The translations under genes were made by a program, and so were the position numbers. From positions 99,569 to 163,568 of the forward strand of contig JAPLWQ010000003.1 of the NCBI GenBank assembly GCA_026396515.1: a stretch of DNA of 64,000 bases, read 5' to 3'. This stretch comes from Candidatus Magasanikiibacteriota bacterium (GTDB lineage Bacteria; Patescibacteriota; Patescibacteriia; Magasanikbacterales; GWA2-37-8). The notes below the pieces were generated by a model. That model ran no database searches, had not been told where the DNA came from, and worked only from the letters and a program-made list of their open reading frames with translations. Positions 4,344 to 23,918 of the stretch are shown here, in pieces (position 1 is the first letter of the stretch; every line of letters begins with the position of its first letter).

Positions 4344-5837
4344 ATGCTTATATCCGATTATCATAAATACCGCTTGTGCGAAATACTTCCCGGATTAAGC
4401 ATCTGGCTCACTCTGGCGCTTGCGGTAATACTGTCCTTTGTCAAGCCGCTATGGATGATTTATTTCATTATCGTATTTGATGTTTATTGGGTGCTGCGTG
4501 TGGTCTACTTTTCTTTTTATCTTATTTTGTCCTGGCGGCGATTCCGTATGGCGTTAAGAACCGATTGGCTGAATAAACTAAGAAATGAATTTCCGAATTG
4601 GGAAGAGAAAAAAAATGTTATTTTTTTGCCGCTTTACAATGAGGAATTTATCGTGATACAGGCAACGCTCGAAGCAATACTCAAATCAACCTATCCGGCT
4701 GAAAAGATGACAATAGTATTTTCCGGAGAGGCGCGCAATTTGCCGCATTGGCAAAATATGCAGCCGCAAATAATGAAATTGTATCAGGAAAGATTCGCCG
4801 ATATTGTATATTACACTCATCCGGCCAATTTGCCGGGCGAGATAGCCGGAAAAGGATCGAACCTGCATTACATGGAGTATCAGTTTAAAAAATATGCCGA
4901 TGAACGCGGTTGGAATTATATGAACATTATTGTTTCGGCATTTGACGTGGATACGGTGGTGCACGAACAGTATTTTGCTCATTTAAATTATATGTATTGC
5001 CGGCACCCCAGGCCGGACCACAGTTCTTTCCAGCCAGTCACATTGTACAACAACAACCTCTGGGAATCGCCGTCGGTTTTGCGCATCATGGCGTTTGGCA
5101 CCACTTTCTGGACAATGTTTTCTCTGGCCCGGTTGGATAATATGGTCACTTTTTCTTCGCACAGCATGAGTTTTAAGGCGCTGATGGATTGCGGCGGCCA
5201 TGCCAAAGATATTGTCAGTGAGGATTCGCGAATTTTTTATCAATGCTGGTTCAGCAATCAGGGCGATTATGAAGTTACGCCGTTATATATTCCGGTTTCC
5301 ATGGACACGGCGCGCGATGATAAATTGCTTAAAAGTTTAAAAAATTTATATTATCAACAGAGGCGCTGGGCCTGGGGGGTGGAGCATGTTCCTTATCTGA
5401 TGTGGCAATGGGGAAAATTTCCGCAAATTGGCCGGTTAAAAAAACTGGCTATGATATTTCATGAGTGGGAAGGAAAATGGAGTTGGGCGCTTGTGGCCAT
5501 ACTTATCACTTTGCTCGGCCGTCTGCCTTTGTGGGTGGCGCAGGAAGAGGTAAGGCAAAGCGCGTTGTTTTTCAACACGCCGCATGTTCTGGAAATAATG
5601 ATGACGGTGGCCATGCTCGGGTTGTTTATTTCAGCCATTATGTCCATGCTTATTTTGCCGCGCCGGCCGATAGGACACTCGCGCTATATGTATCTGATAA
5701 TGATTTTACAATGGGCTTTGCTCCCGGTATCCCTGATAGTTTTTTCAGCCATTCCCTGCATCGATGCGGTTACCCATTTAATGTTCGGAAAATATCTTGG
5801 TTTCAACGTATCTGCTAAAAAAAGGGCAGCAGTATAA
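4344..5837 (+). CDS. Family-2 processive glycosyltransferase (cellulose/chitin-synthase-like) integral membrane protein
   Basis: It has a QQRRWAWG (QxxRW) motif, a D,D,D-type GT-A region and multiple TM helices at both ends. Confidence 0.65.
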   Translation: MLISDYHKYRLCEILPGLSIWLTLALAVILSFVKPLWMIYFIIVFDVYWVLRVVYFSFYLILSWRRFRMALRTDWLNKLRNEFPNWEEKKNVIFLPLYNEEFIVIQATLEAILKSTYPAEKMTIVFSGEARNLPHWQNMQPQIMKLYQERFADIVYYTHPANLPGEIAGKGSNLHYMEYQFKKYADERGWNYMNIIVSAFDVDTVVHEQYFAHLNYMYCRHPRPDHSSFQPVTLYNNNLWESPSVLRIMAFGTTFWTMFSLARLDNMVTFSSHSMSFKALMDCGGHAKDIVSEDSRIFYQCWFSNQGDYEVTPLYIPVSMDTARDDKLLKSLKNLYYQQRRWAWGVEHVPYLMWQWGKFPQIGRLKKLAMIFHEWEGKWSWALVAILITLLGRLPLWVAQEEVRQSALFFNTPHVLEIMMTVAMLGLFISAIMSMLILPRRPIGHSRYMYLIMILQWALLPVSLIVFSAIPCIDAVTHLMFGKYLGFNVSAKKRAAV

Positions 5838-5839
5838 AT

Positions 5840-7324
5840 ATGACTTTTAAAAGATTTGTAAAAATTTCATTTCTGACGATTCTCGCCCTGCTTGTCGCCG
5901 GCGGTACTTTTATATTTTTTTGGTATCGCTCCGGCGGTCTTCAGCAAACTGTAATTCAAAAAATCGGCAAGCAATTTTTGTCTATTGATGAAAATACGCC
6001 CCCGGAAAACGGACAGACGTCCATTGACGGGGCAGCCGCCACTAATTTTGTACAAGAATTTTTTGGCTTGAGGGAGCCGCAGACATATTTGATAATGTTT
6101 TTGAACAATACCGAACTTCGGCCCGGCGGAGGCTTCATCGGAACATACGCAGTGGTGACTATGGATAAGGCCAATCCGAATATTGCAAAAGTTGAGGGCA
6201 CGGAAGTTCTTGATAATTTAGCGCCAAAGAATTTTCCTTCTGAGCCGCCGGCGCCGATCCGCGAATATCTTGGGCTGGACCGCTGGTATTTCCGCGATTC
6301 AAATTGGTCGCCGGATTTTAAAATATCGGCCGCCAAATCTCTTGACCTTTATCGCAAAGAAAATGGCGTTTTGGCAGACGATATAGATGCCGTCATCGGG
6401 TTTACTCCCACGCTGGTTGAAGATTTACTGCGCATTTCCGGTCCGGTCACGGTAAACGAAGTGGAGTTTACCGCGGATAATTTTACCGAGAAATTGGAAT
6501 ATGAGGTGGAGTACGGATTTGCCAAGAAAAATGTTCCTTTTGAACAGCGTAAAAAAATGCTGGCCGATTTGGCAAAAACAGTGATCATAAGCACAGCCAA
6601 AAACGCATTTTTGCATTGGGGAGAATATAAGGATCTGGTGGAAAAAATGCTGGCGGAAAAACAGATGATGGTTTATTCGCCCAATCAGGATTTTCAGAAA
6701 ATTTTTGAGAGCAAAAATTGGGCCGGTGAAATGTCCGGTGTAAGCTATGACTATTTAATGTGGGTTGATGCCAATCTTGGCGCGCTTAAAACCGACTGGG
6801 CGATTGAGCGGGAATTGACCTATGGGCTCAACCAGATAAGCGACGGACGTTATGTGGCAAAAGCAAAAATGACTTTTAATCATCGTGGTAAATTTGACTG
6901 GCGCACCACCAGATATCGTGACTACGCCCGCGTTTATGTGCCGGTGGGCAGTAAATTAATCAGAGTGAACGGTTCTATGAAATCGGATAAAAGTTCGGAC
7001 CCCGGTGTTGTTGACCAGGGTATAGAAAATGGCCGTCAATGGTTCGGTGCTTTTATCTCTATTGAACCTGGACGCACCGGAGAGCTGTCCTTTGAATACT
7101 TTGTGTCGCCGGAAGTGGTGCAACGGCTTAAAGCCAATGACTATCGTCTGTTTGTTCAAAAACAACTCGGCACGAATAATGTAAAATTATCGTTTCAATT
7201 AAATTTATCCAATATTTTGGCGTTTGCCTCTCCGGGAGAACCGTCCGGAAGACATGGTGACAATAAATATGAAAATAGCATGATTCTTAAAAAAGATATT
7301 GAATTGGAGGTTAGAACTAAATAA
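5840..7324 (+). CDS. Membrane-anchored extracytoplasmic protein (possibly DUF4012-like), hypothetical
   Basis: 494-aa ORF with an N-terminal TM anchor, adjacent to the GT2 gene. No catalytic motif was recognised. Confidence 0.45.
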   Translation: MTFKRFVKISFLTILALLVAGGTFIFFWYRSGGLQQTVIQKIGKQFLSIDENTPPENGQTSIDGAAATNFVQEFFGLREPQTYLIMFLNNTELRPGGGFIGTYAVVTMDKANPNIAKVEGTEVLDNLAPKNFPSEPPAPIREYLGLDRWYFRDSNWSPDFKISAAKSLDLYRKENGVLADDIDAVIGFTPTLVEDLLRISGPVTVNEVEFTADNFTEKLEYEVEYGFAKKNVPFEQRKKMLADLAKTVIISTAKNAFLHWGEYKDLVEKMLAEKQMMVYSPNQDFQKIFESKNWAGEMSGVSYDYLMWVDANLGALKTDWAIERELTYGLNQISDGRYVAKAKMTFNHRGKFDWRTTRYRDYARVYVPVGSKLIRVNGSMKSDKSSDPGVVDQGIENGRQWFGAFISIEPGRTGELSFEYFVSPEVVQRLKANDYRLFVQKQLGTNNVKLSFQLNLSNILAFASPGEPSGRHGDNKYENSMILKKDIELEVRTK

Positions 7325-22086: not shown

Positions 22087-22159
22087 GCCGTTGTAGCTCA
22101 GTTGGTAGAGCAACTCCATGGTAAGGAGTAGGTCCGCGGTTCAAATCCGCGCAACGGCT
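22087..22159 (+). tRNA. tRNA-Thr (anticodon GGT)
   Basis: Manual cloverleaf: acceptor GCCGTTG/CAACGGC, D-loop AGTTGGTA, anticodon loop ATGGTAA, T-loop TTCAAAT. Confidence 0.8.
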
Positions 22160-22188
22160 CTGGGTTTACAAATAGTATCGCCTTGTAC

Positions 22189-22261
22189 GCCACCTTAGCT
22201 CAGCTGGTAGAGCAACGGTTTTGTAAACCGTAGGTCGTCGGTCCGAGCCCGACAGGTGGCT
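22189..22261 (+). tRNA. tRNA-Thr (anticodon TGT)
   Basis: Manual cloverleaf: acceptor GCCACCT/AGGTGGC, anticodon loop TTTGTAA. Confidence 0.8.
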
Positions 22262-22277
22262 CGCAGATCATTTAATC

Positions 22278-22359
22278 GGATGGGTTCCCGAGCGGTCAAA
22301 GGGGACAGACTGTAAATCTGTTGGCTCCGCCTTCGAAGGTTCGAATCCTTCCCCATCCA
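22278..22359 (+). tRNA. tRNA-Tyr (anticodon GTA) with a long variable arm
   Basis: Acceptor GGATGGG/CCCATCC, anticodon stem ACAGA/TCTGT, loop CTGTAAA, a 13-nt variable arm and T-arm GAAGG-TTCGAAT-CCTTC. Confidence 0.8.
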
Positions 22360-22386
22360 CATTGTAAATTAATAATATTGAAAAAT

Positions 22387-22551
22387 ATGTCGTCCAAAGA
22401 AAGAGAAAACATGATAAAGATGGAGTGTTCTGAATGTAAGCGCGTTAATTACTTCAGCAGAAAGAATAAAAAACTTCTGAAGAACCGCTTGGAGATAAAG
22501 AAATACTGCCGTCACTGCAAAAAGCACTTGGCACACAAGGAAACAAAGTAA
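22387..22551 (+). CDS. rpmG: 50S ribosomal protein L33
   Basis: [54 protein letters not shown] carries the L33 CxxC...CxxC zinc ribbon. The ORF-track extension back to 22321 would run through tRNA-Tyr. Confidence 0.85.
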
Positions 22552-22555
22552 TTTT

Positions 22556-22584
22556 AAGGGCAGGACTCTTGTCCTGCCTTTTAA
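22556..22584 (+). terminator. Intrinsic terminator after rpmG
   Basis: Hairpin AAGGGCAGGAC-TCTT-GTCCTGCCTT followed by TT. Confidence 0.55.
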
Positions 22585-22588
22585 ACAC

Positions 22589-22626
22589 GGGGGGGTTCGT
22601 ATAGTGGTAGTATTATGGTCTCCAAA
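22589..22626 (+). pseudogene. tRNA-like 5' fragment (Trp-like anticodon loop, no matching 3' half)
   Basis: GGGGGGTTCGTATAGTGGTAGTATTATGGTCTCCAAA has a classic D-loop AGTGGTAG. It shares GGTCTCCAAA with the tRNA-Trp 0.5 kb downstream. No complementary acceptor or anticodon 3' strands were found. Confidence 0.3.
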
Positions 22627-22668
22627 TTGCCTTGTTATTGGAGGAATGATGACGTATAATATAGACAT

Positions 22669-23112
22669 ATGGAAAGTAACATATGTCTAAAATGTCACAA
22701 GAGCAAGCTGATATCCGAATTCAGTATTAGAGATAAGGAATCAAGGCGTTTTCATAGCCTCTGCAAAGATTGCCATTCAAAATATAGGCGAGAGCACTAT
22801 TTGCGGAATAGAGAGAAATATTTAGTTAAGGCAAAACGATGGAACAAGAAACAGACGTTTTCTCTACGCGCATTTATCTTCGACTATCTCTCAAATCATC
22901 CATGTGTAGATTGTGGTTCGAAAGATGTTAGAGTTTTAGATTTCGACCATGAAAGAGATAAGAAAATGGGCATCGCTCAAATGATACGAAATTGTCATTC
23001 ATTGTCATCGGTAGAAAAAGAAATTAAAAAATGCAGAGTAAGATGTGCTAATTGCCATAGAATAAAAACATTTTCACGAGGAAATTTTTGGAAAAATAAA
23101 ATGGGTCCGTAG
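22669..23112 (+). CDS. HNH endonuclease with an N-terminal CxxC/CxxC zinc finger (homing-endonuclease-like)
   Basis: CVDCGSKDVRVLDFDHERDKK...CANCH is an HNH core. The stop codon lies inside the 5' end of tRNA-Trp. Confidence 0.7.
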   Translation: MESNICLKCHKSKLISEFSIRDKESRRFHSLCKDCHSKYRREHYLRNREKYLVKAKRWNKKQTFSLRAFIFDYLSNHPCVDCGSKDVRVLDFDHERDKKMGIAQMIRNCHSLSSVEKEIKKCRVRCANCHRIKTFSRGNFWKNKMGP

Positions 23113-23174
23113 TTTCAATGGTAAAACATCGGTCTCCAAAACCGAGGTTCCCCGTTCGAATCGGGGCGGGCCTG
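23103..23174 (+). tRNA. tRNA-Trp (anticodon CCA)
   Basis: Acceptor GGGTCCG/CGGGCCT (two G-U pairs), anticodon stem TCGGT/ACCGA, loop CTCCAAA, T-arm CCCCG-TTCGAAT-CGGGG. Confidence 0.8.
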
Positions 23175-23238
23175 CGATTTTTACCCCGCATAGGCGCGAA
23201 GCGCATTGTGCGGGGACTACACCCCCTGCGAAATAAAT

Positions 23239-23263
23239 GAATCCTGTAAGGGATTCTTTTATT
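23239..23263 (+). terminator. Putative intrinsic terminator downstream of tRNA-Trp
   Basis: Hairpin GAATCC-TGTAAG-GGATTC followed by TTTTATT. An upstream GC hairpin CCCCGCA...TGCGGGG is also present. Confidence 0.45.
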
Positions 23264-23351
23264 AAGCGTAATATAGCTATATTTTAGTATTTAGGCTAAA
23301 ATAGCAGGTAAAATTGAAATAATTATCATATTCCGATTGTATATATAACAT

Positions 23352-23918
23352 ATGCCTGTTCCCGAGAATTTAACCGATGAACAGCTGATTGTAGGCGTAA
23401 GAGAAATTGATAAGGAATTCTACAGTGAGATCATCCGGCGCTATCAAACAAAGCTGTCCCATTATTTGCGAAAATTTATTAAAAGCGGTGATGAACTTGA
23501 AGACGTGCTTCAAGATGTTTTTATAAAGGCATATCGTAACTTGTATGATTTTGACGTGGGTAAGAAATTTTCTCCCTGGATATACCGCATCGCGCATAAT
23601 GAAGCGCTGAATCATGTAAAAAAATATCGCAGGGAATCGGTATCACTCGACGACCAGGAGTTGGAAATATTTGATGAAGGTTTTGATATCAAGGAGACGG
23701 TTGATCGTACTATTGCCCGGGAAAGAATAGAGAGCGCGCTCTTGAAAATTAAAGACAGATATCGCGAACCTATTATATTGTATTTTTTTGAACAAAAGAC
23801 CTATGAAGAGATCGGCGATATTTTACGCTTGCCCCGTAATACTGTCGGCACGCTTGTATCACGTGGAAAAAAATTATTGAAACAATTATTAGCCACTGAA
23901 AAATATGATAGAAAATAA
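23352..23918 (+). CDS. ECF-type sigma-70 family RNA polymerase sigma factor
   Basis: Region 2 is DVLQDVFIKAYRNLYDF...FSPWIYRIAHNEALNHVKK. Region 4 is YEEIGDILRLPRNTVGTLVSRGKKLL. Confidence 0.8.
   Translation: MPVPENLTDEQLIVGVREIDKEFYSEIIRRYQTKLSHYLRKFIKSGDELEDVLQDVFIKAYRNLYDFDVGKKFSPWIYRIAHNEALNHVKKYRRESVSLDDQELEIFDEGFDIKETVDRTIARERIESALLKIKDRYREPIILYFFEQKTYEEIGDILRLPRNTVGTLVSRGKKLLKQLLATEKYDRK

Follow-up and report, generated by a model that had tools for sequence, protein, structure and literature searches.

An HNH endonuclease gene and the tRNA-Trp gene that it overlaps form a probable homing cassette next to a tRNA-Trp relic in a Patescibacteria genome

The DNA analysed here, referred to as the window, is a stretch of 64,000 nucleotides from a Candidatus Magasanikiibacteriota bacterium, and all features described below lie on its forward strand between positions 22387 and 23264. 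The upstream host gene is rpmG, encoding ribosomal protein L33 (22387..22551; Pfam Ribosomal_L33, E=2e-16), followed by a terminator-like inverted repeat, TTTTAAGGGCAGGAC / GTCCTGCCTTTTAAA, with 15-nt arms that are 87% complementary (22552..22585); the T run of this repeat is too short and it was not flagged in the terminator scan. Next comes a 37-nt segment, recognisable from the sequence itself as the relic 5′ half of a tRNA-Trp gene (22590..22626), and its final stretch, GGTCTCCAAA (22617-22626), recurs with 100% identity at 23131-23140, within the intact tRNA. Partly overlapping the relic is the inverted repeat CTCCAA (22620-25)-N12-TTGGAG (22638-43), spanning 22620..22643, which brackets the -35 hexamer of a sigma-70-like promoter, TTGTTA-17-TATAAT (22632..22660; promoter scan, 10/12 matches). 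The gene that follows encodes a 147-aa HNH (His-Me finger) endonuclease with an N-terminal zinc ribbon (22669..23112; PHROG 2255), and its start codon lies within a perfect 10-bp inverted repeat, TAGACATATG / CATATGTCTA (22662..22689), which was found by repeat search, is specific to the window and may limit translation.

The HNH reading frame runs directly into an intact tRNA-Trp(CCA), here called type A (23103..23174; ARAGORN; Rfam 55.9 bits). The last four HNH codons (K-M-G-P) and the stop extend into the tRNA, with the stop TAG (23110-23112) forming tRNA U8-A9-G10, so that the overlap amounts to 10 nt, as the preliminary description of this locus had placed it. Beyond the tRNA lie a hairpin, CCCCGCA...TGCGGGG (23184..23215), which is unique within the window where none would be expected by chance and may be part of the right end of the inserted unit discussed below, and an intrinsic-terminator-like hairpin with a T run, detected by the terminator scan (23239..23264), which is probably the end of the HNH-tRNA transcription unit. 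A hairpin comparable to that at 23184..23215 also follows tRNA-Trp at the related locus L177. The genes downstream of the tRNA encode a sigma-70 r2/r4 factor, an unknown protein, a membrane-fusion-like protein and a MacB-type ABC transporter, with neither secE nor nusG among them, in agreement with the sigma factor and the missing pair reported previously. A dip in GC content (0.36-0.39 against 0.40-0.47) reaches into the sigma gene and was set aside as not diagnostic.

Assignment of the 147-aa product to the HNH endonucleases was based on PHROG 2255, ‘HNH endonuclease’ (E=3.3e-30), with further matches to PHROGs 3106 (1.3e-15) and 4234 (8e-9), while the Pfam HNH profile PF01844 fell below the cut-off (E=0.071). 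Residues D93-H94, N128, H130 and the cysteines C79, C82, C126 and C129, which make up both CxxC pairs, are invariant in 25 homologues, and in the AF2 model (pLDDT 93) strands 90-94 and 122-126 are followed by a helix at 127-137. The protein therefore has the residue pattern of the HNH superfamily (Asp-His, Asn, metal-binding His/Asn and two CxxC pairs on a beta-beta-alpha core), and a Foldseek comparison to the PDB gave no significant match. Among 94 HNH homologues collected, 25 are 58-73% identical to the window protein. The family as a whole comprises 22,087 representative clusters at E<=1e-10, distributed over phages and many bacterial phyla; two of the loci, L021 and L069, contain degenerate copies with one in-frame stop apiece.

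The relic reads GGGGGGT TC GTAT AGTGGTA GTAT T ATGGT CTCCAAA, with a D stem that can pair, and consists of the acceptor strand, the D arm, the 5′ strand of the anticodon stem and the loop CTCCAAA, ending at tRNA position 38. The preliminary description had pointed to this tRNA-like 5′ half and its missing 3′ half, and both observations stand: no partner lies next to the relic, where TTGCC is found in place of the required ACCAT, and neither ARAGORN nor Rfam, even at E<=10, called it as a tRNA. The relic and the hairpin that follows it were judged real since both recur in orthologous loci. The window relic is identical to that of L003 at 31/37 positions, while the HNH proteins of these two loci share only 65%. 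At about 13 loci the relics stop at tRNA positions 38-42 and lie 25-43 nt (mostly 35-43) upstream of the ATG, and their length ranges from 37 nt down to ~12 nt or none (L006, L178). Typing the window relic by similarity was attempted and rejected, as its 28/37 matches to the tRNA-Trp of L169, a locus lacking the HNH gene, compared to 26 to the tRNA type now linked to the HNH gene, do not discriminate, and the L003 relic is no closer to L169.

A relic of this kind could in principle also arise by tandem duplication of tRNA-Trp, followed by decay of the upstream copy to a 5′ half and, later, by the arrival of an unrelated HNH gene between the two copies; no tRNA gene would then have been the site of an insertion. 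In favour of duplication, tRNA genes often occur in tandem, the window retains only a 5′ half with no evident old 3′ half, and the relic at L001 resembles the present tRNA there (30/38 matches). Decay of a duplicate does not, however, account for a single breakpoint, at tRNA positions 38-42, across independent lineages and tRNA types, nor for the differences between the window relic and the present tRNA in acceptor arm, D arm and D-loop length. Already disfavoured on these grounds, duplication and decay is in our view highly unlikely.

The arrangement of CTCCAA, 12 nucleotides and TTGGAG after the fragment was confirmed, and as a structure it is weak (-3.8 kcal/mol as DNA, z = -1.5) and alone not significant. 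Across loci, however, the repeat tracks the linked tRNA: in 25/76 loci, 11 of them exactly, the right arm matches the anticodon loop of its own tRNA as reverse complement, as opposed to a mean of 8.3 matches and 0.23 exact matches when loops of other anticodon classes were used. Matched repeats are present for Trp, Arg-TCG, Arg-ACG, Lys-TTT and Tyr-GTA, and the actinobacterial tRNA-Gly(TCC) group has the repeat in only 1/13 loci. The HNH ATG lies 8 nt past the -10 box, a gap from which the HNH mRNA is expected to have little or no leader, and the combination of a -10-like hexamer, a short spacer (mostly 6-9 nt) and a start codon recurs at loci from Patescibacteria, Acidobacteriota and Actinomycetota. 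Taken most simply, the position of the anticodon-loop repeat around the -35 hexamer suggests an operator through which the nuclease would repress its own synthesis.

A second reading of the same elements is that the 5′ half and the hairpin form a functional RNA, either a working element, such as a tRNA mimic or a T-box-like sensor offering the Trp codon UGG to the tRNA, or the 5′ exon of a split or intron-containing tRNA. In its favour, the cognate codon is part of the right arm, which changes together with the anticodon, and in L006, L055, L056 and L059 the anticodon-loop copy is retained despite decay of the remaining relic. Against it, no tRNA, intron or T-box match was obtained even at E<=10, the relic is reduced to ~12 nt or absent in some relatives, as noted above, the putative intron would contain a complete tRNA, and the predicted promoter lies inside the hairpin, which places the right arm outside the HNH transcript. 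With this evidence, a functional RNA is barely credible.

The preliminary description had also entertained a decayed tRNA intron, and this was not borne out. ARAGORN and Rfam found no intron-containing or split tRNA that uses the fragment, no 3′ half and no intron family, and an Rfam search of 22350-23400 at E<=10 returned only the intact tRNA and chance matches, with no group I/II intron or other ribozyme. The HNH reading frame is not intronic in its layout: a promoter-like site of its own precedes it, and it is flanked by a tRNA relic on one side and a complete tRNA on the other. An integrase-mediated tRNA island was likewise rejected, since the HNH gene is the sole reading frame between the repeats and the repeated part is the 5′ side of the tRNA, ending at the anticodon loop.

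Related genomes were compared at the corresponding position. Eight orthologous Patescibacteria loci (L001, L003, L006, L173, L177, L178, L008, and L009) contain the window's unit in a shared order of relic or loop, TTTGGAG, -10 box, ATG, HNH and tRNA-Trp, with rpmG likewise upstream in L001, L003, L006, L173, L178 and L008 and with flanking genes that vary among the eight. The preliminary description had regarded relatives with the HNH gene at this place and no fragment as evidence against an insertion footprint; the gene is indeed there in relatives, but most of them retain a full or truncated fragment, and the footprint idea is not refuted by this check. The empty site that it had proposed to look for was found twice. 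L169 has the order TPR-Thr-Thr-Tyr-rpmG-tRNA-Trp without an HNH gene and is the closest host to the HNH-bearing L001 (TPR protein 65% identical), and the HNH gene present in L006 and L178 is missing at the corresponding place in L172. The locus is thus polymorphic for presence and absence, with L169 and L172 empty and L001, L003, L173, L006 and the window occupied. At L168, a 218-aa ORF with a weak HTH_23 match and no PHROG match occupies the HNH position. A metagenome scan with the TPR neighbour returned only five loci.

The linked tRNA does not follow the other tRNAs of its hosts, as expected if it is co-converted with the HNH gene. Type-A tRNA-Trp genes are 86-97% identical among the HNH-bearing loci and L172, compared to 58-69% identity to those of the HNH-free syntenic relatives L168 and L169. 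Between L001 and L169, the tRNA-Thr and tRNA-Tyr genes are 88-96% identical and tRNA-Trp 62%; between the window and L001 the relation is reversed, with 96% identity in tRNA-Trp and 76-86% in tRNA-Thr and tRNA-Tyr. This result suggests that, contrary to the earlier proposal that the intact tRNA was regenerated from the old gene, it is probably a different allele that travels with the HNH gene.

These comparisons also bear on whether the unit is still mobile. It might be a fossil or a domesticated element, stemming from one ancient insertion that was inherited vertically with some loss, with an HNH protein that no longer homes and has a host function or none, and a relic and hairpin kept solely as the promoter of an essential tRNA. 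The Trp-type HNH proteins are mutually 60-70% identical, have kept their length and their catalytic residues, and show no sign of very recent transfer within this bacterial clade; the unit is always beside rpmG, where tRNA-Trp was located ancestrally; L172, with the same tRNA type and no HNH gene, looks as it would after loss; and dependence of the tRNA on the cassette promoter would hold the upstream part under selection. Part of the patchy distribution could indeed have come about through loss. Vertical inheritance is, however, difficult to reconcile with HNH-bearing hosts that form no clade, L001 being nearest to the empty L169, with a similarity of tRNA-Trp among HNH-bearing hosts that far exceeds that of their remaining tRNAs, and with the unrelated tRNA-Trp of L168 and L169. 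The same design also occurs at 19 anticodons, phages included, with one presence/absence pair in 99.5% identical flanks, and we consider the fossil or domesticated state unlikely.

In the wider family, the link between nuclease and tRNA is general. At 50/80 genome loci and 19/80 viral loci, the end of the ORF falls within -40 to +60 nt of the start of a same-strand tRNA, with preferred tRNA-start offsets from the ORF end of -9, -14, -20, and -23, corresponding to overlaps of 10, 15, 21, and 24 nt. Nineteen anticodons are represented at the family loci, and the nearest HNH neighbour shares the tRNA type in 57/76 cases, compared to 11.6 expected. Four loci (L032, L051, L045, and L094) retain nested scars, in which the old 5′ part lies upstream of the HNH gene and new tRNA, and the T arm and acceptor strand of the old gene follow 10-25 nt 3′ of the new tRNA. 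This downstream acceptor strand is complementary to its upstream counterpart, perfectly in L045, L051 and L094, and old halves that flank the new tRNA in this way indicate nesting and argue further against tandem duplication.

The phages PegLeg and Bongo provide the presence/absence pair. Their flanks are 99.5% identical, and in PegLeg 553 nt, containing a promoter, an HNH gene and a different tRNA-Met, replace 76 nt of Bongo that consist of 4 nt and the resident tRNA-Met; Bongo and ~14 further near-identical records are empty and PegLeg is occupied. The HNH-adjacent tRNA is again a different allele, as co-conversion predicts. Together with the empty sites L169 and L172 and the recurrence of the unit at other tRNAs, this pair bears out the earlier suggestion that the locus is the footprint of a mobile free-standing HNH gene.

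Given this anatomy, its recurrence, the presence/absence polymorphism, the nested scars, the discordant tRNA and the covariation of the repeat with the anticodon, all of them observed, we consider it likely that the segment from ~22627 to 23174 is a free-standing homing-endonuclease cassette carrying a rescue tRNA. The cassette would comprise a short leaderless promoter, the HNH gene and a complete tRNA-Trp overlapped by the ORF, and would at one time have inserted itself into a resident copy of tRNA-Trp, at the 3′ side of its anticodon loop, so that the target was probably the tRNA-Trp gene itself and not, as initially thought, the junction between rpmG and the tRNA. The resident 5′ half (22590-22626) would then persist upstream as a decaying scar, while the cassette's own tRNA would supply the cell with tRNA-Trp. 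No convincing old tRNA 3′ half was found in the window, and the present tRNA may or may not owe its 3′ half to the cassette; the sequence ACCCCCT-G at 23221-23228 could pair with the acceptor strand of the relic and has no T arm before it.

By analogy with intronless homing, the HNH enzyme would cut or nick cassette-free tRNA genes of the same anticodon between the anticodon arm and the variable loop, and the break would be repaired off the cassette-bearing copy. Where homologous flanks are available, the entire resident tRNA may be replaced; where homology is limited to the tRNA itself, with the anticodon loop serving at the left end and the T arm and acceptor at the right, insertion would leave the cassette nested in the old gene. 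The cargo tRNA, with stems that differ from those of the resident, may serve both as a rescue copy and as a resistant allele. Since cargo and target share the anticodon loop, immunity must on this assumption rest on determinants outside the loop. The nuclease would read the anticodon-loop sequence in its target and, with the same sequence placed at -35, repress its own promoter. Because the HNH stop codon lies within the tRNA, processing by RNase P would remove it and may limit the enzyme further. A bolder version, in which such cassettes make up a very large class of natural cleave-and-rescue elements, each HNH lineage with the anticodon-loop region of one tRNA gene as DNA target, a resistant cargo tRNA, insertion through tRNA-internal homology and a two-copy anticodon-loop operator at -35, is tentative and on balance somewhat doubtful.

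On the best reading, the cassette is of the same general kind as T4 SegB and the HNH genes found in phage tRNA arrays. It resembles the intronless homing systems of T4 (SegB, SegF, SegG, and MobE) in having a free-standing nuclease gene, and SegB in particular is located among tRNA genes, cleaves the tRNA genes of relatives without it and so promotes inheritance of the tRNA region (PMC2330249), dragging adjacent tRNAs along by gene conversion. The authors of that work proposed that tRNA-Arg maturation severs the stop codon of segB from the last codon in the transcript (PMC2330249), a limit on expression similar to that suggested here. SegB differs in belonging to another nuclease family (GIY-YIG), in recognising a conserved T-loop motif of many tRNAs instead of one anticodon, and in being known only from phage, with no promoter of its own nearby and no nested scars or anticodon-matched promoter repeat described.

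The same HNH superfamily in a tRNA setting is found in T5 F-TflI/II/IV, cluster M mycobacteriophages and mycobacterial and cyanobacterial arrays, and PegLeg gp102 and Patelgo gp131 are ~38-40% identical homologues whose ORFs run 10 and 7 nt into the tRNA that follows. In mycobacterial tRNA arrays, HNH genes are the most frequent type of CDS (PMC5966550), and they have been suspected of helping to spread tRNA arrays (PMC5966550, PMC6582537, PMC8421152). These reports describe an association only, and not a unit of promoter, HNH and one tRNA, split relics or an anticodon-matched repeat; the arrays contain many tRNAs and reside on phages, plasmids and islands, whereas the window has a single chromosomal tRNA-Trp in a reduced genome. 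In the literature searched, to which Pope et al. 2014 did not belong, nested scars or relics, a rescue tRNA, an anticodon-matched repeat and a chromosomal single-copy tRNA-Trp setting were not found.

For the suggested operator, the closest parallel is I-TevI, which, in work attributed to Edgell et al. 2004, reportedly binds a homing-site-like operator over its own promoter and represses without cutting. I-TevI is intron-encoded and of the GIY-YIG type, unlike the cassette, for which the role of the repeat is suggested by its position at -35 and its covariation with the anticodon. Integrase-borne tRNA islands also target tRNA genes, restore a functional tRNA and leave a partial copy as a repeat. 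They use a tyrosine integrase and duplicate the 3′ end of the tRNA, whereas the cassette is ~0.55 kb, has no integrase, leaves a 5′ half over and supplies a whole, different tRNA allele. In cleave-and-rescue drives, said to have been described by Oberhofer, Ivy and Hay 2019, a nuclease acts against an essential gene and is linked to a resistant functional copy. Those drives are engineered, Cas9-based and designed for diploid inheritance, whereas the cassette is presumably propagated by repair-mediated copying; the resemblance is functional only.

Being essential, tRNA genes are also short and present almost everywhere, and an element that comes with its own tRNA copy can invade them without costing the host much. 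This would account for horizontal replacement of tRNAs and for a tRNA-Trp that departs from the phylogeny of its neighbours in these reduced genomes, and, given a large family spanning many phyla and phages, the effect on tRNA gene evolution and on the dynamics of tRNA arrays could be general. The anticodon-matched repeat suggests a route by which the nuclease recognises its target and restrains itself, and new site-specific enzymes might be obtained from the matched sets of nuclease, target and operator. If the more tentative cleave-and-rescue view were true, essential single-copy tRNA genes would be overwritten in bacterial chromosomes and phages, horizontal moves between unrelated genomes would be possible through tRNA-internal homology, and the family would offer a natural series of nucleases in which specificity and operator change together.

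At the window locus, two tRNA-Thr genes and a tRNA-Tyr gene (22087-22360) lie upstream of rpmG (22387-22551), which is followed by a terminator-like hairpin, a 37-nt tRNA-Trp 5' half (22590-22626), an HNH open-reading frame of 147 aa (22669-23112) and, 3' of it, an intact tRNA-Trp gene (23103-23174). The 5' half consists of the acceptor strand, the D arm, the 5' strand of the anticodon stem and the loop CTCCAAA. Upstream of the HNH frame, CTCCAA-N12-TTGGAG is followed by TATAAT and, 8 nt on, by the ATG, and the TAG stop codon is formed by U8-A9-G10 of the intact tRNA-Trp. The preliminary description had reported the HNH frame between rpmG and tRNA-Trp, its stop within the first 10 nt of the tRNA, and the tRNA-like half with the inverted repeat upstream, and all of its sequence statements were correct. 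The encoded protein is an HNH nuclease (PHROG 2255, E=3.3e-30) with a confident structure model (pLDDT 93), weak matches in Pfam and PDB comparisons, and two CxxC pairs, D93-H94, N128 and H130 that are invariant in 25 homologues. A decayed tRNA intron, offered earlier as an alternative origin, was not borne out, as neither ARAGORN nor Rfam called the 37-nt half and no Rfam intron family matched the locus. The CTCCAA/TTGGAG hairpin taken alone is weak. A perfect 10-bp inverted repeat (TAGACATATG / CATATGTCTA, 8 nt apart) surrounds the HNH start codon at 22662-22689 and could hide it in the mRNA; none was seen in the orthologous loci examined. Downstream of tRNA-Trp, a hairpin CCCCGCA...TGCGGGG followed by ACTAC...CCC (23184-23228) occurs once in the window, with 0 copies expected by chance, and has a counterpart directly after tRNA-Trp in the related locus L177 and none at L001, L003, L006 or L173.

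Twenty-five proteins, most of them 145-154 aa long, share 58-73% identity with the window HNH protein. Orthologous loci were compared on the contigs of the homologues P0002, P0004, P0005, P0006, P0016 and P0022, plus L008 and L009 from the genome scan, and at all of them tRNA-Trp adjoins the HNH frame. The overlap is exactly 10 nt in L001, L003, L006, L008 and L178, 15 nt in L009 and 2 nt in L173, and the L177 frame ends 6 nt before the tRNA. TTTGGAG, a -10-like box and the ATG follow one another upstream of HNH in every case, with CTCCAAA 10-14 nt 5' of TTTGGAG in nearly all. The window and L003 retain the whole tRNA half; it is decayed yet recognisable in L001 and L008, about 12 nt long in L006 and absent in L178. 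The genes downstream of the unit differ at each locus. In L008 (3490-3680), the last ~22 nt of tRNA-Trp and its 3' flank (ATTCCTTGTGCCCCCGCAAATA) recur ~160 nt downstream, past a terminator hairpin, which has the appearance of an att-type scar left by a separate, small insertion at the 3' end of the tRNA.

Syntenic contigs, located with the neighbouring TPR protein as probe, supplied the empty sites that the preliminary description had proposed to look for in relatives. L169 has the order TPR-Thr-Thr-Tyr-rpmG-tRNA-Trp, with rpmG directly before tRNA-Trp, and L172 has rpmG-DUF1189-tRNA-Trp without an HNH gene at the place where L006 and L178 have one. Hosts with an HNH gene are not a clade when compared by TPR and TIM identity, L001 being nearest to the empty L169 (65%). 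In another syntenic relative, L168, a different 218-aa frame (5192-5848) lies between rpmG and tRNA-Trp (5834-5907) and overlaps that tRNA by 15 nt. This frame has an HTH-like stretch at its N-terminus, no HNH and no PHROG match, and may represent a second, unrelated gene family using the same landing place and layout.

The tRNA-Trp genes are discordant with their neighbours. Between L001 and L169, identity is 96% for tRNA-Thr(GGT), 88% for tRNA-Thr(TGT), 92% for tRNA-Tyr and 62% for tRNA-Trp, whereas between the window and L001 tRNA-Trp is 96% identical and the same three tRNAs 86, 82 and 76%. The window-type tRNA-Trp is 86-97% identical among its carriers, the HNH-bearing loci of the group and L172. 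These identities fit a tRNA carried as cargo with the nuclease gene, and loss of HNH in L172. The Trp-type HNH proteins are only 60-70% identical to each other, which argues that spread within the clade is old, and some absences may be losses. One in-frame stop each in the L021 and L069 HNH copies is as expected of elements decaying after fixation. A G1-U72 wobble tops the tRNA-Trp acceptor stem in the window, L001, L003, L006, L169 and L172, in the cargo type and the L169 type alike, and L173, L168 and L009 have A1-U72; the window tRNA-Trp also has U4-G69, and its CCA is not encoded.

The link to tRNA genes extends across the family. Scanning one genome per species returned more than 543 HNH relatives in Patescibacteria, Chloroflexota, Actinomycetota, Acidobacteriota and other phyla, viral contigs returned more than 547, and a profile search matched 22,087 representative clusters at E<=1e-10. 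The frame ends -40 to +60 nt from a same-strand tRNA start in 50 of the 80 loci from genomes and 19 of the 80 from viral contigs, proportions that are not unbiased since loci were picked by similarity to one query, and MAG labels may be wrong for some. Favoured offsets of the tRNA start from the frame end are -9, -14, -20 and -23 nt (overlaps of 10, 15, 21 and 24 nt). Nineteen anticodons are represented, most commonly Arg-TCG, Gly-TCC and Trp-CCA, and in 57 of 76 cases, where 11.6 would be expected, the closest HNH relative is linked to a tRNA of the same type, a figure to which shared host ancestry contributes. The HNH unit often occurs in tandem copies or as fused double or multiple units (L016:2505-3450; P0027 and P0031, 237 aa; the profile-search list). 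Several matched stretches (2-5) occur in many representatives, and in Ktedonosporobacter two copies stand side by side after tRNA-Ser and tRNA-Trp. In Actinomycetota (L030, L039-L043, L047-L049, L052, L053, L057, L061), the HNH gene lies between divergent tRNA-Pro(GGG) and tRNA-Gly(TCC) genes in three layouts, 5' of tRNA-Gly with a 21-nt overlap, 3' of it, or facing an inverted tRNA-Gly; neither a relic nor a repeat was recognisable in any of these loci.

Among cultured phages, a comparison of PegLeg with Bongo and ~14 further near-identical phage records, whose flanks are 99.5-99.8% identical, is direct evidence that nuclease gene and tRNA travel together and displace a resident tRNA with the same anticodon. 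PegLeg has 553 nt, made up of a promoter region of 37 nt, an HNH gene and tRNA-Met, where Bongo-type phages have 4 nt and a quite different tRNA-Met. Elsewhere in the PegLeg array, the 85-aa hypothetical frame gp107 (L181:2147-2469) overlaps the next tRNA, tRNA-Leu, by 10 nt, so this layout is not confined to HNH genes there.

Insertion into tRNA genes has left scars. In ~13 loci, the ATG is preceded at 25-43 nt (mostly 35-43) by a copy of the tRNA 5' part that breaks off at positions 38-42. Both old halves are present in L032 and L051 (Arg-TCG, Pyrinomonadaceae), L045 (Arg-ACG, Micromonospora) and L094 (Arg-ACG, viral), where 10-25 nt separate the new tRNA from the old T arm and acceptor strand that follow it, and the acceptor strand pairs with that of the upstream relic, exactly in L045, L051 and L094. 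The order is therefore old 5' part, promoter-HNH-new tRNA, old 3' part, an arrangement that is nested and differs from a tandem duplication. In the window, the 5' scar alone is convincing, and it may be the lineage's own old tRNA-Trp gene or have been brought in with the cassette. The short loop relic of PegLeg travels with the cassette.

A promoter scan placed TTGTTA-17-TATAAT at 22632-22660, and since the ATG lies 8 nt past the -10 box, the HNH mRNA is predicted to have little or no leader. In loci of several phyla, a -10-like hexamer again precedes the start codon by a short distance, mostly 6-9 nt. The relic's anticodon loop forms the left arm of the repeat and the -35 box falls within the spacer; the right arm, which begins directly after that box, is the reverse complement of the linked tRNA's anticodon loop: TTTGGAG for Trp, TCCGAAG or TTCGAAG for Arg-TCG, TTAAAAG for Lys-TTT, TTACAG for Tyr-GTA and TTCGTAG for Arg-ACG. 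Right arms matched their own class in 25 of 76 loci against a mean of 8.3 (maximum 18) with other-class loops, and exactly in 11 against 0.23 (maximum 2), in 1000 permutations; in this test the actinobacterial Gly-TCC group lacked the anticodon-matched repeat (1 of 13 loci matching). Against a shuffle control, which predicted 0.65 loci with both arms, 12 of 54 loci had both. The loop copy is retained where the remaining relic has decayed, and in L056 pairing reaches past the tRNA-derived bases, which argues that the repeat is selected as a unit. Upstream of HNH gp131 in phage Patelgo (L182:1140-1200), an 8-bp inverted repeat (CTGAACTA / TAGTTCAG) surrounds a consensus TTGACA -35 box in window-like geometry, and there is no match between this repeat and the anticodon loop of the linked tRNA-Cys.

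Promoter, HNH gene and tRNA form a compact, polymorphic unit bearing an anticodon-matched repeat; resident tRNA genes with the same anticodon are either replaced or split by this unit. The kind of element is known, since free-standing homing endonucleases occur among tRNA genes (T4 SegB, PMC2330249) and HNH genes are the commonest coding sequences in tRNA arrays of mycobacteria, their phages and cyanobacteria (PMC5966550, PMC6582537, PMC8421152). A full-text literature search of incomplete coverage did not find a unit of one nuclease and one tRNA as a general rule, tRNA scars in nested form, a tRNA acting as rescue copy, a leaderless promoter with an anticodon-matched repeat, or such an element occupying the only chromosomal tRNA-Trp, beside rpmG, in Patescibacteria.

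We consider the reading as a cassette that leaves scars probable. The HNH enzyme would cut or nick tRNA genes that lack the cassette in the vicinity of the anticodon arm or variable loop, the region in which the scars break, and break repair would then copy the cassette. Long flanking homology would exchange the entire resident tRNA gene, as in PegLeg versus Bongo, and tRNA-internal homology alone would nest the cassette. The repeat around the -35 box would most simply be an operator bound by the nuclease, as is reportedly the case for I-TevI, a role that we propose tentatively and hold to be somewhat doubtful. By cleaving at the 5' end of the tRNA, RNase P would remove the HNH stop codon and restrain synthesis, in line with the proposal made for tRNA maturation in segB (PMC2330249). 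The relics would act as portable homology arms until decayed, and the cargo tRNA, because its stems differ, could serve as both rescue copy and resistant allele.
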